Shown here piece after piece: positions 22,388 through 33,076 of a DNA stretch of 64,000 nt (position 1 is its first letter; every line of letters begins with the position of its first letter). The stretch is from assembly GCA_963815195.1 (NCBI GenBank), contig CAWFGE010000013.1:1024001-1088000 (forward strand), read 5' to 3'. This DNA comes from an uncultured Planctomycetaceae bacterium. GTDB taxonomy: Bacteria; Planctomycetota; Planctomycetia; Planctomycetales; Planctomycetaceae. Position numbers and translations under genes: made by a program. The notes under the pieces were generated by a model. It was not told where the DNA came from. It was given only the letters and a program-made list of their open reading frames with translations, and did not search any database.

Positions 22388-22780
22388 AATGCAAAGTGCA
22401 AAATGCAAAATGCAAAGTGCAAAGTCAGTCGTTCCAAATTTCGGTAGAAAGGGCCGAAGGTCCGGAAAGACGCAATCGGTCGATGTGTGTGAGAGTTGCC
22501 AAAATAGCGCCGCCCCGATGGGGCTTTCGATTCATTCATTCTCCGCGTAACCCAGGACGGCGCTGCGCTTGTCCTGGGCTGACATAGAGCCGGGCCATTG
22601 GCCCTAAATGCATTTGCTGCTAATGCAGCTGAGACGGTTGCACCACGATCACACGAAATTTGGAACGATTGAAATTGCAGATGAAAATGCAAAATGAAAA
22701 GTGCAAAATGAAGACTGGTCAGTTTGCATTTTTCACTTTGCATTTTTCACTTTGCATTTTTCACTTTGCATTTTTCGCTT
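22388..22780. repeat. Arrays of short TGCAAAA/TGCAAAG-type repeats in direct and inverted orientation, interrupted by a MITE
   Basis: Direct arrays at 22388-22424 and 22675-22712; inverted array of TTTGCATTTTTCAC units at about 22723-22776. Confidence 0.85.
22425..22672. mobile_element. MITE-like element (family B), copy 1, with internal REP hairpins
   Basis: 19-nt terminal inverted repeats TCAGTCGTTCCAAATTTCG / CGAAATTTGGAACGATTGA (1 mismatch). Homologous to 30985-32692. Confidence 0.75.
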
Positions 22781-24430
22781 TCAATAACGGAAAAACCGCG
22801 AGCGGGGCACGTTGAGATGCCAGACGCGGTTGTTGTTCGGATCGAACTCGTGGAGGCCGTTTTCGTCGGCGATGAGCGTGTTGCCGTTGGAGAGCCGTTG
22901 AGCCTGGGCGGGATTTTTGAGATCGGCTTTGGACCAGACGATGCTGCCTTGGGGGTCGTATTCATCCACGCGGTTCAATCGCATTTCCGTCACGAGAATG
23001 TTCCCGTTGTCGAGCATCTGGGACGTGTGCGGCATGTCCAGCCCGCCGATCAGTTTTCGGATATTGCCCTCATTGTCCACTTCGACCACCTGTCCCGCGC
23101 TTTCCTGAGTGACCCGTTGCAGATTGATGACCGTGTGGCCGTTGGGCAGACGCTGTGCGGTCGTGGGCCGGCCTTCGATCGTCAGGTCCCACACCACCCG
23201 CCCGTCGCGGGCGACTTCCACGACGTGATTGCTGTCGGAGCAGGCGACGAGGACGTTCCCATTCTCCAATCCCTGGACGCCGGTGGGCCGGCCGGGCAGA
23301 TCGCTGTGCCGCCAGGTTTCCTTTCCCGTTTCATCATATTCGAATACGACTTTCTCGTCCGAATCCACCGCCAGCCGCCGGCCGTCCGGCGTCGCGTGGC
23401 AGCCCCAGACATATTGGAAGCCCGAGATCCGAAAGACCTCGTCTTTGTCCGCCGTGACCTCCAACAAGGTTTTGTCGTTGGTGCTCCAGGCGCAAATCAG
23501 CGTCCGGCCCAGTTCCATTTGCTGCCGGGGGAAAGGAAACTTGAGTTCGGCGGCGGCTCCGTGCTGCTTGAGCCATCTTTTCCAGGACAAGACCGCCAGC
23601 GTACGGGGCTTGGCGTCGCCGCCCGGCGGAAAGCCGAACTGCTTCCCCGTCACAGCCCGCAGAATGGTTGCGCTTCGCTGCCGCTCTTCAAATCGCGGCG
23701 ATTCCAAGAACTCCACCAGCACCGGCAAGCACTCCCGCCGGCCCAAGTCGGCCAAAGCTTCCGCCGCCGCCAATCGCATCGAGGACTCGGCGTGCTGCAG
23801 ACTCGGCAACAGCACCGGCAACGCCCGCGTCTGTAGCGCGGCCCCGAGCGCCAACAGAGCCGCCTCCTTTCGCGGGGAAGGCTCGCGGGCGATCGCCTCC
23901 CGCAACAAGCCGGCGTCAGCCGGCCCGGCCGTGGCGTAAAGAGCTCGCTGCGCGTGGCGAAAAACATACGCCTCCTCAAGCTGCGGAAGCAATCGCAGCA
24001 ACAACTTCGCCAGACCCTTGACCCGGTGGTGCTCGATGAATTGAAGCACCGCCACCAGTTTCGCCTCATAGGCTTGCTGCTGCGCTCTCGCCAGCAATCG
24101 CCTGGCCCGCGCGCGGACTTCCGCATCGCCGGAGCGAACCGCCTCTCCCAGTTGCGAAATTGGGGGCACGGGCAGCCGCATCAGTTCCCGCGTCGCCGCC
24201 TGCCGCTCGGCGAACCTCGGGCTGCCGAGTTTCGCAATCAGCGTTTTCACGCGCTCTTCCCCGTCTTCATCGGCCAGGACCAATGTCAAAAAGCGATTCA
24301 CTCCCGCAGGTGTCGGTTCGATTTTGAACCGCTTGAGCTTGGCATCGATAACATGCTCCGCCGAGGCGCGCATTGGTGCCAGAAGCAAAACGGCCGCCGA
24401 GCACACAAAATAGAAAAGGGAATGCGGCAT
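22781..24430 (-). CDS. Secreted HEAT-repeat + beta-propeller protein
   Basis: Signal peptide, HEAT-like helices, then repeated (RL)xNGN(T/V)L...E.D..G..VW propeller blades. Confidence 0.8.
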   Translation of the reverse strand: MPHSLFYFVCSAAVLLLAPMRASAEHVIDAKLKRFKIEPTPAGVNRFLTLVLADEDGEERVKTLIAKLGSPRFAERQAATRELMRLPVPPISQLGEAVRSGDAEVRARARRLLARAQQQAYEAKLVAVLQFIEHHRVKGLAKLLLRLLPQLEEAYVFRHAQRALYATAGPADAGLLREAIAREPSPRKEAALLALGAALQTRALPVLLPSLQHAESSMRLAAAEALADLGRRECLPVLVEFLESPRFEERQRSATILRAVTGKQFGFPPGGDAKPRTLAVLSWKRWLKQHGAAAELKFPFPRQQMELGRTLICAWSTNDKTLLEVTADKDEVFRISGFQYVWGCHATPDGRRLAVDSDEKVVFEYDETGKETWRHSDLPGRPTGVQGLENGNVLVACSDSNHVVEVARDGRVVWDLTIEGRPTTAQRLPNGHTVINLQRVTQESAGQVVEVDNEGNIRKLIGGLDMPHTSQMLDNGNILVTEMRLNRVDEYDPQGSIVWSKADLKNPAQAQRLSNGNTLIADENGLHEFDPNNNRVWHLNVPRSRFFRY

Positions 24431-30905: not shown

Positions 30906-31066
30906 ACACCAAAGCCCAGATTCGCGAAGCGTACTCTGGGTCCCCGACGTGCCAAGAATCCATACGCCGAAGGCGTTATACAATTCGGTAGTTCCCAATT
31001 ATGGAAAAAGGACCAAAGGTCCGGCCCGATGTCAGCCCAGACATCTGAGGTTTTTTCAAGTGGGTT

Positions 31067-32048
31067 TCAGGTGGTTTCTGTTGTTGTTTCCAATAAATTC
31101 CAGACGGGGCTGTTTCTGATTGTGAGTTGTTCCTGGTACTTCATTTCCGAGTAAGGGGTGCCGGTTTGCCACATCCGAAAGATGATGCGAATCCATTTGA
31201 AGGCCAAGGCGCGGACCGCGGCGTGGTGGCTCATGCCGGCCGCGCGTTTCATTTGATAGAACGCTCGGGACCAATCGCTCCAGCGGCGGGCCTGGTCGGC
31301 GAACTCGTGGAATGTCTGCCGGAGAAATTTGGGGCAGGCGATTCGCGACAACACGAGCCGGGTCTTCCCGCTTTGCTTGGTGATCGGGGCGATGCCGCTT
31401 TTGGATTGCACGTCCCCGGCGTCTTGGTAGCGGTCCCGGTCGGAGCCCGCTTAAGATCGCCCAAGCTCGGCCAGCGGCGAAGCACGGCGAGCAACAGGGG
31501 TTGGCGACTCTTGCCGGCACACCATTCGAGCAGTTGCGGAAAATACAGCTTGAGCGTGCCTTCGAGCTTCTGCACAAGGGTTTTGCGGTCATCGACCAGC
31601 TTGCGGCGAAGTTCGGACAACTCGGCCAGGCGGCGGGTTTCGGGATCGTCCGCCACGAACGGGAGGAGTTGCTCCTGATGGTTTTGCAGAAAGCGGGCCA
31701 AGAGTGCGCATCGTCTGGATCGGATTTCGCTCCCGAAGGATGAATCGCGTCCCGATAGCGGGCCAGCTGCTTGGGATTGATGGGATACAGTTCGAGTTCC
31801 AGGTCGGCGAAACGGCGGAGCGCGTTCATCAGCGCGCCGCGGCTTTGCTCCAACGCGATCCGAATCGGGCGACCGGGGAATTGCTTCCGCAGGCCGGCGA
31901 GCCAGTCGGCAATCGCTTCGGGCGTGTGTTCGAGTTGCCGGTGTTCGGTTCCGCCGTCGGGAAGCAGCCGGCAGACGGCATGTTCGCGGTCGGCCCAATC
32001 GAGGCCGATCAGCACACAGGCATTGGGGTCGAGCAAATTCGAGTGCAT
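31067..32048 (-). pseudogene. IS110 recombinase/transposase, frameshifted and internally deleted
   Basis: RuvC-like DEDD motifs (IGLDWA, IALEQ, KSDPDDA) and C-terminal SGIAPITKQSGK...AVRALAFKWIRI are spread over three frames. Frame breaks at about 31705 and 31445. Confidence 0.9.
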
Positions 32049-32079
32049 GGGGGATCGTCTCCTGTTAAAGTGAAACACA

Positions 32080-32256
32080 ATCAAAAAGGGCACGCGATCT
32101 TGGGAGCGGGCGAAAACCTTATAGTCCGAGACGTTTTGGCGTCATCATCTGGAGTGATTCGTTGGTTCCCAAGAGCATCGTCCCGCTCGAAAGTCTGGGC
32201 TCAATCGTTGAAGCGATGGGGCGCACGATTCGTAGCGGGGCGACGCGTGCCTGATT
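32080..32256 (-). ncRNA. Predicted IS110 bridge RNA (target-binding and donor-binding loops)
   Basis: Guide segments at 32219-32225 and 32195-32201 match the insertion site; 32146-32151 and 32118-32124 match the element's circle junction. Each pair flanks a small hairpin inside a larger stem. Confidence 0.85.
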
Positions 32257-33076
32257 TTGATCCTCTCAAAGTTGGGGCTGGAAAAACAGGAAAAAAACGG
32301 CGCTGGATCGGCTCCGGCGCGGAAGAGTCCGTGGGGAGAGACTTGCGTCCCCCCGCCCTCTCCCGCGGCCGATCCATCCCTCAGCAAATCCTATAAGGGC
32401 GCAGCCCTGGGAACGGGAACGAACAAAATGCAAAAGCCCCCGCGGGGCGGTCCTAAACCGGAGATGCGCAGGTGACTGCGTGGGTTTGAAGCCGCCCCTG
32501 CACGTGACACATAGGGCCGCCCCGTTGGGGCTTGCGTTTCATTAATCATCCGTAACCCAGGCCGGCGCTGCGCTTGGCCTGGGCTGACATAGAGCCGGGC
32601 CTTCGGCCCTAAATTCTTTTGGTGCAGGCGTCTCGCCCGCCAATGCAGCCGGGACGGTTGCACCATGATCACGCGAAATTTGAAACGACTGATTTTGAAT
32701 AACGCCTTCGGCGTGTGTTTCATGATTGTCAACACGACACCCAAGGTGTCGCGGCTGTGCCGTTGACCTTGGGATTTGTTCTCTAACGCCTTCGGCGTAA
32801 GACTCCGTCCACAAAACTCTTGCAAATCCTGCAATTCTGGGATGTTCTCCGGCGAAGTCTCTTTGCAAACGCGAAATTTCCCAAAAAACCTCCGAGCGTT
32901 TAACGTCTTTTTGTAACTGAAGTTGCGACCACAGCCGGCCAAGAGAACCCGAAAAAATCTCCTAGAGGCCGGAATCGGCCTCAAGTTTGCATTTGAAGAG
33001 GGGCGTTCGGCAAGGATGTCGAACTCCCGGCGATTCCCTTCCGCCGCCTCCCGCAAACTGATGGAGCGACAATCAC

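Follow-up and report, generated by a model that had tools for sequence, protein, structure and literature searches.

An element of the IS110 family is located in the window (the whole stretch of DNA analysed, 64,000 nucleotides), where it interrupts a repeated extragenic palindrome of a planctomycete. It is very probable that this element encodes a bridge recombinase of the IS110 group, which is guided by the element's own bridge RNA to the 13-mer TGCGCC-CT-GGGCT in arm B of a repeat representing the shell of a Y1 transposase locus, and that it has spread through the genome recently. This reading draws on the ends and core of the element, its copy number and independent insertions, the match and covariation of its guides and targets, the occupancy of the target sites, and the remnants of Y1 genes in the repeat.

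The element was found on the minus strand at positions 31041-32397. Its length is 1357 bp in the window copy and 1659 bp in intact copies. The flanks are GTCAGCCC-AG at 31031-31040 and AG-GGCGCAGCCCTGGG at 32396-32411; on the plus strand, GTCAGCCCAG has its last base at 31040 and AGGGCGCAGCCCTGGG its first base at 32396, both AG dinucleotides being the CT core on the strand of the element. In silico excision of 31041-32397 gives CCCAGGGC-GCA-GCCCTGGG, a perfect hairpin with an 8-bp stem and a 3-nt loop. These flanks and the restored hairpin are exactly as written in the preliminary description of this DNA, and its CT core shared on the element strand was read at both junctions in all five copies of the genome.

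The core dinucleotide is thus CT at both ends in 5/5 copies, and the target is restored without a scar when the element is removed. An identical empty target site exists on contig C12. The long left end (349 nt) and the short right end (26 nt) of intact copies correspond to the layout of the IS110 group and not to that of IS1111, according to the criterion given in passages of PMC11208160. The coordinates of all the features are collected in the table.

Table. Positions of the element, its predicted RNA and the host repeat in the window
Feature	Position	Strand	Remarks
Arm A hairpin of another, partial repeat copy	22551..22578		Empty; 4 mismatches to target
Host repeat, outer foot of arm B	31009..31040		Lies to the right of the insertion, as read along the element strand
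Second CT core (AG on the plus strand)	31039..31040	-	Immediately beyond the right end
IS110-family element	31041..32397	-	First bases are the CT core at 32397-32396; both ends common to five copies
Right non-coding end, 26 nt	31041..31066	-	Contains -35 hexamer TTGAAA (31059-31054) and left-donor sequence CAGATGT
Recombinase gene, broken in the window copy	31067..32048	-	1-bp loss near 31704; 301-bp loss near 31443-31448
Left non-coding end, 349 nt	32049..32397	-	Predicted bridge RNA lies within
Outer stem, 32244-32251 with 32089-32096	32089..32251	-	Closes both loops into one predicted multibranch fold; columns 11-15 covary with 176-182
Putative donor-binding loop	32098..32174	-	CAGATG (32151-32146) as left donor guide; CTATAAG (32124-32118) as right donor guide
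Putative target-binding loop: closing stem, internal loop, inner hairpin	32182..32239	-	Compensatory pairs across 21 homologues
Right target guide AGCCCAG, 7 nt, extended form	32195..32201	-	Reverse complement of CTGGGCT
Left target guide TGCGCCC	32219..32225	-	Equals six bases left of the core plus core C
Predicted 5' stem-loop of left-end RNA	32305..32375	-	From the fold alone
-10-like hexamer TAGGAT	32388..32393	-	17 nt from TTGAAA solely with the ends joined in a circle
Host repeat, remainder	32398..32610		32398-32411, rest of target hairpin; 32434-32455 / 32512-32533, inner inverted pair
Host repeat, arm A hairpin	32556-32583		Followed by the outer foot

The intact recombinase consists of 427 amino acid residues, and its frame is intact in 2 of the 5 assembled copies. 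The initial assignment to IS110 agrees with the matches of the intact protein to Pfam families PF01548 and PF02371, to NCBIfam NF033542 (171.9 bits at a cut-off of 140) and, in PDB, to the recombinases of ISCro4 and IS621. The DEDD residues (D17, E67, D110, D113) and the catalytic S327 align to D11/E60/D102/D105/S241 of IS621, named as catalytic in passages of PMC11208158. For the longer coiled-coil region, a Nop5-like interpretation was also considered and set aside, nothing relevant being present in passages of 10.1101/2024.06.21.599552.

Two losses distinguish the window copy from the 1659-bp intact copies: 301 bp are absent at ~31443-31448, where two GGGCTC microhomologies border the gap, and 1 bp is absent at ~31704. 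Contigs of sequencing runs X1 and X2 contain the latter base, and contigs of X1-X3 continue into the segment lost at 31448. The breaks of the window copy were not seen in contigs of the sequencing runs, which drop rare variants. These breaks may be assembly errors or may be confined to one copy or strain. If real, they would deprive the window copy of the recombinase; as it keeps both ends and the RNA, it could still be moved in trans.

The genome searched comprises 8.87 Mb in 25 contigs (the assembly is 94.6% complete), and the window belongs to contig C13. Five copies of the element are present genome-wide, namely the window copy and four others found by BLAST on C13, C15, C18 and C19. All of them start with CT-TATAGG and finish with CTCAGATGT-CT, and the alignment gives CCCAGGGCTGCGCC as the left flank and GGGCTGACA as the right flank. 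The proposal that other copies should all be sought in TGCGCC-CT-GGGCT was followed, and 5/5 copies were found there with the same two junctions.

The host repeat has a length of ~245 bp when empty and occupies about 59 loci in the genome. Its outer feet are inverted relative to each other; it also contains two CCCAGGG hairpins, which are not the same, and an inner inverted pair that encloses a variable spacer. The hairpin is multicopy, GC-rich and placed in inverted arms; the copy in the window is situated downstream of ispG/gcpE.

This hairpin had been described at first as a REP. It is indeed a repeated extragenic palindrome, but it should rather be called REP-like, and its link is to Y1 proteins similar to subclass 1.2. 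In aligned copies, the foot of the hairpin reads TCAG before CCCAGGG in place of the GT[AG]G foot that characterizes REPs in passages of PMC6006769, and no class-2 TnpA_REP (Y---NP) flanked by the repeat was found, 0/6 Y1_Tnp loci of the genome carrying the repeat. The target therefore departs from classical REPs in two features, the foot and the flanked TnpA_REP gene. Several of the six Y1_Tnp loci are accompanied by different repeats, belonging to these loci themselves.

In relatives, Y1 genes are flanked by related arms. Of 123 metagenome loci with the exact 30-nt arm-A motif, 14 have a Y1 sequence nearby (at least 100 aa in 8 of them); full flanks were available for only 80 of the 123. In L147, L173 and L207, this motif encloses whole Y1 genes as inverted repeats, and the same arms bracket an intact Y1 gene in these three loci and in G023 L112.

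Using a Y1 profile built from three proteins bracketed by the repeat arms, matches were obtained in the spacer of 3/59 repeat loci (17.6, 14.9 and 12.4 bits) and in one repeat copy of G001, a genome of the same genus (17.5 bits). All the spacer matches correspond to the first 20-25 residues of the protein, and random windows gave no more than 7.1 bits (n = 2000). The Y1 proteins bracketed by the repeat family carry Y---Q--HH, which in passages of Quentin 2018 (PMC6006769) denotes subclass 1.2, a sister of IS200 TnpA and not TnpA_REP class 2; this subclass was assigned here by the motif only and not by the profiles of Quentin 2018. A search of the 94.6%-complete assembly for an intact cognate Y1 gene yielded only a C-terminal piece (36% identical); the repeat itself would be mobile. 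From these sequences, the repeat is best read as a hollow shell of an IS200-like Y1 transposase locus, with at most a gene scrap between its arms. No matching planctomycete repeat is named in passages of PMC3733652.

The left end of the element is predicted to fold as a 5' stem-loop followed by a multibranch domain with two internal loops. The fold of RNA corresponding to 32075-32260 has z = -3.9, and 17/29 consensus pairs, the outer stem included, show compensatory changes in 21 homologues. Three matches were obtained in Rfam, all far below the gathering score. The arrangement of LTG/RTG/LDG/RDG, as well as a 7-nt right target guide in some orthologues, is described in passages of PMC11208160. 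Recognition of the target from two sides, as suggested initially, would be provided by the guides readable in this left end. For the donor, CAGATG matches the right end of the element and CTATAAG is the reverse complement of its first 7 bases; the pairing of the left donor guide is imperfect beside the core, a reading of the sequence giving 6 matches, one mismatch and one wobble.

When the right and left ends are joined in silico, TTGAAA is followed after 17 nt by TAGGAT, a match to the sigma-70-like consensus with predicted activity. A sigma-70 scan of the integrated locus gave 0 sites. The circle junction has 0 matches in the assembly and, like a clean joint of the empty site, was not found in contigs of four DNA runs, such contigs showing presence and not absence. 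Two long-skip joints in run contigs were rejected, their short side being 20-21 letters and originating from another small repeat.

The formation of a circle, the use of its promoter, the expression of RNA and the chemistry of recombination are viewed here by analogy with IS621, on the basis of passages of PMC11208160 and PMC11208158. On leaving the chromosome, the element would become circular, its right end being joined to its left end through a single CT core. With TTGAAA and TAGGAT set 17 nt apart at the circle junction, transcription of the left end into bridge RNA would be expected. In the target loop, TGCGCCC would pair with the bottom strand to the left of the core, and AGCCCAG with CTGGGCT of the top strand, while the donor loop would pair with the circle junction via CAGATG / CTATAAG. 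The DEDD-plus-serine recombinase would join the circle and the target at CT, so that CT is left at both ends. The 13-mer used as a target would be that in arm B of the ~245-bp intergenic repeat, and since this repeat is probably a hollow shell of a Y1 locus, it may supply the element with a stock of harmless landing sites.

The guides were compared with the targets in 51 loci, i.e., 50 related GTDB loci and this element, which makes up one row; 31/51 were parseable and 20 were not. A sliding 7-nt match was used, with the same treatment for true and permuted pairs. The homologous loci have the same ends as this element, and the targets of the homologues tested are largely unrelated sequences. 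The best match to the own guide was at least 6/7 in 20/22 distinct left targets (permuted mean 1.4) and in 17/20 distinct right targets (permuted mean 2.9). Neither the left nor the right observed sum was reached in 5000 permutations, a count that overstates independence because the homologues are related. A fixed-register version of the same comparison, in which several rows are misregistered, gave 0/20000 permutations.

The right donor guide also follows the end of the element. Particularly, the guide CTGTAAG occurs where the element starts with CTTACAG (L008, L009), and the guide is CTATAGG with CC-core ends (L014, L026, L029, L033). Across the homologues, guides change together with their targets.

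The exact 13-mer TGCGCC-CT-GGGCT is filled in 5/7 of its occurrences genome-wide. A fourth-order Markov model predicts 0.22 copies in the genome versus 2 empty and 5 filled ones observed; together with the identical junctions of all five copies, this speaks against chance. The genome-wide count of unoccupied sites that had been asked for is two. Of these empty 13-mers, that of C12 belongs to a solo arm that is truncated, and that of C13 is a non-hairpin site. Among complete arm-B copies, exact sites are filled in 5/5 cases and one-mismatch sites in 0/14 (12 with the mismatch in the left arm and 2 in the core). The empty exact site of C12 is absent from the arm-B census because its arm is truncated; with this site added, 5/6 exact sites versus 0/14 one-mismatch sites are filled (Fisher p = 3.9e-4). 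Of the 43 rows assigned to arm B in the same census, 4 proved on inspection to be arm A, with 3 mismatches each; they stand outside the exact and one-mismatch counts. The element has filled almost every exact site and has left one-base variants alone.

Many of the empty one-mismatch variants retain a perfect hairpin, with the loop TTC or TCC or with a compensated change in the stem. The fold is consequently not sufficient, and the guide appears to read the loop bases. Two hairpins at ~22570 and ~32575 had earlier been offered as unoccupied controls. Both exist and are empty, but they are weak controls, since each has 4/13 mismatches and belongs to the opposite arm A; that at ~32575 is the opposite arm of the same repeat that holds the element. 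The informative controls are the 14 unfilled copies of the target arm with one mismatch.

These data may be confronted with other explanations. If a single insertion had occurred and the repeat had then been copied with the element as a unit, gene-converted or duplicated in the assembly, the five copies would not be independent. In fact, the copies of C13 (491 kb) and C18 share flanks past the repeat and are 96% alike within it, but the long flank common to them is also present in empty repeat copies. The elements are 99.6-100% identical (0-6 base differences over 1354-1659 aligned positions), whereas the 250-nt repeat flanks are 83-96% identical between copies in 10/10 pairs; near-identical elements in diverged repeat copies point to recent and separate insertions. 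As for duplication in the assembly, one 1689-nt contig of run X1, which may be the source sample, spans the intact element with a depth of 14.8, compared with 3.1-3.9 for unique flanks, corresponding to about 4-5 element copies. A single insertion is, in our opinion, very improbable. It is hardly conceivable that the recombinase reads the hairpin of the repeat by its structure or by protein-DNA contact, with an incidental guide match: this would agree with the position of all 5 copies in the same repeat arm, but perfect hairpins with a changed loop (TTC, TCC) or a compensated stem are all empty, the guides covary with unrelated targets across the homologues, and, in passages of 10.64898/2026.03.19.712850, the stem-loop of ISPpu10 is no substitute for base pairing.

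A dual match, in which guide pairing is needed and the target hairpin raises efficiency as in ISPpu10, would add to the explanation by a bridge RNA and is possible, although rather unlikely. Each of the 5 filled sites (5/5) belongs to a perfect hairpin with a 5' arm complementary to the left target, the sole exact 13-mer outside any hairpin is empty, and the integration of ISPpu10 decreased to about 44% upon removal of the target stem-loop (passages of 10.64898/2026.03.19.712850). However, a single empty site without a hairpin is too little for a test, and an exact site within a hairpin is empty as well. Moreover, the targets of homologues are not better folded than other CT/CC sites of their own flanks: 3/18 fall in the best tenth, with a combined p = 0.21 (21 loci were given, 3 were unscored and one right end was misparsed). 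Across the homologues, the core is found in loops, stems or unpaired stretches, and its register is not fixed. Guidance by the bridge RNA to the exact 13-mer is the explanation preferred here.

The single orthologue of G001, whose protein is 93% identical and whose target guides are the same, was found outside the repeat. The left side of its site matches neither guide, and the right side, CTTATGG, matches the donor end in 6/7 positions; a donor-end match that good occurs at 0.47% of CT sites in the genome studied here (3848/816396). Three exact 13-mers of G001, 2 of them in the repeat, are empty. The orthologue at a donor-like site counts against strict targeting. RD-only half-match insertion of IS621 is documented by in vitro and engineered E. 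coli data in passages of 10.64898/2026.08.31.748434. By analogy, the G001 site, which matches the right donor guide alone (6/7), would fit such an insertion as a single natural case with an unconfirmed pre-insertion site.

In the metagenome locus L194, a 49%-identical IS110 relative is inserted at the equivalent CT of a related variant hairpin arm. The right guide is the same, and the changed left guide matches the changed left flank in 7/7 positions.

A broader reading may be put forward tentatively, as a conjecture somewhat short of even chances. The landing pad would consist of undescribed non-autonomous mobile shells of subclass-1.2-like Y1 loci, and the IS110 clade would be their standing parasite, keeping the right guide for the hairpin foot CTGGGCT and rewriting the left guide after arm variants, as in this element compared with L194. 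Exact sites would be exhausted here, with graded one-base variants unfilled, and a donor-like half-match would serve as a fallback in the sister genome. If this is true, the locus family would show in nature how specific a bridge RNA is, how its targets become exhausted and how its guides are re-programmed.

In the literature searched, mostly open-access papers, no description of this element or this repeat was found. The portion of the Durrant 2024 supplements that was available contains 0 matches to the junction 14-mer and 2 matches to the target 11-mer, both in unrelated aligned RNAs. The tree in that work, as far as seen in this portion, includes planctomycete proteins, and one of them resembles this clade by eye.

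According to passages of PMC11208160 and PMC11208158, the element has much in common with IS621 (E. coli) and ISCro4: a DEDD plus serine recombinase, the CT core at both ends, a long left and a short right end, a junction promoter of the sigma-70-like type, target and donor loops, LTG/RTG/LDG/RDG, and repeated extragenic palindromes as targets. Judged by its sequence, it probably works like IS621 and displays the testable characteristics of the IS110 group.

Lists of IS110 elements found exclusively in repeated palindromes go back to 2003-2006 (passages of PMC1525189). As reported there by Tobes and Pareja (2006), 7/7 copies of ISPpu9, 7/7 of ISPpu10, 6/6 of ISPa11 and 4/4 of ISRm19 are in REP sequences. 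The element under study resembles these four in that all its copies (5/5) are at one position of a repeated palindrome, in the CT core and in a target stem-loop formed with the left target. As far as that source goes, their hosts are Proteobacteria and their targets classical REPs, whereas here the host is a planctomycete, in keeping with the named organisms in which the closest relatives of the recombinase occur, and the few exact sites are nearly all filled.

The repeat itself shares Y---Q--HH of the bracketed Y1 proteins with TnpA_Y1 subclass 1.2 of Quentin 2018 (PMC6006769), and its empty shell, with two inverted hairpin arms around a variable spacer, resembles non-autonomous elements of the REPIN/MITE type. 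In passages of PMC6006769, subclass 1.2 belongs mostly to Cyanobacteria and Bacteroidetes and is generally without typical IS200 end structures. Unlike the subclass as described in those passages, the family considered here has long inverted arms with three hairpins and is represented by tens of shells devoid of a gene.

The exact sites, nearly all filled, beside 14 unfilled one-mismatch sites are a clean natural data set and indicate that, in its native host, a bridge RNA that carries 7-nt guides and has not been engineered discriminates single bases, those of the hairpin loop included. Owing to its fixed ends and easily read guides, the clade could conveniently supply new bridge recombinases. 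The 'REP' targeting of IS110 elements would be tied here to repeats from IS200-like Y1 loci rather than to RAYT/REP systems. This broadens the view that any repeated remnant of a mobile element may serve these elements as a target, provided that it offers safe intergenic sites. Summarizing the comparison with known systems, as covered by the passages cited above, it may be concluded that E. coli and Pseudomonas have already provided examples of this mechanism, and that what is new lies mainly in the host group and in the type of repeat used as a landing site.

Homologues of the element occupy more than one kind of repeat. The homologous IS110 loci L008, L009, L022, L027, L028, L034 and L038 are inserted in other short palindromes, of the type that flanks Y1 genes, and in these palindromes the core is placed either within the loop or within the 3' arm. 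On more than one occasion, it seems, this IS110 clade has switched its aim to a different family of repeats. In the source genome, 5 out of 6 loci resembling Y1 transposases (L056–L061) have their own flanking palindromic repeats, which belong to at least four different kinds, none of them related to the target repeat of the element; several REP-like families are present in this genome.

In the same-genus genome G001, the orthologous element (L093, contig C25, about 390.9–392.5 kb) has target guides identical to those of the window element, and its insertion site matches the right donor guide only. Inspected by eye, the DNA to the left of L093 has a motif that resembles the beginning of an IS66-type gene.

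Genome-wide, the target hairpin has been deleted in about 8–9 copies of arm B of the composite repeat, with the deletion lying between two short direct repeats inside the hairpin, and three arm B copies retain the exact left target with an altered core (CA, GT and GC). Core changes were also found in arm A (4 of 32 copies). The hairpin losses and core changes in arm B could be the result of ordinary slippage and drift, or they could be scars of failed recombination.

Other small repeats accompany the composite repeat in the window (see the table), and the TACGCCGAAGGCGTTA type recurs at several locations in the genome. A search of the foot of the composite repeat (32578–32610) against Rfam gave no significant match (Acido-Lenti-1, 16.5 bits against a gathering threshold of 37; E 0.94). 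The recA-like gene adjoining the intact element copy on contig C18 (L002:3460–4622) is broken across two frames, a sign that the source assembly carries single-base indel errors.

Other repeats in the window
Repeat	Positions	Location
Second small repeat, TACGCCGAAGGCGTTA type	30961-30983, 32695-32717, 32779-32799	both sides of the composite repeat
Tandem runs of 7-nt and 14-nt units, TGCAAAA / TTTGCATTTTTCAC type	22400-22425, 22685-22785	flanking the partial copy of the repeat at 22570

A subgroup of the homologues, including L014, L019, L026, L029, L030, L033, L043 and related loci, has a CC core together with matching guides, and its hosts are mostly Acidobacteriota. The second core base in this subgroup is C, whereas in IS621 orthologues it is described as an almost invariant T (PMC11208158).
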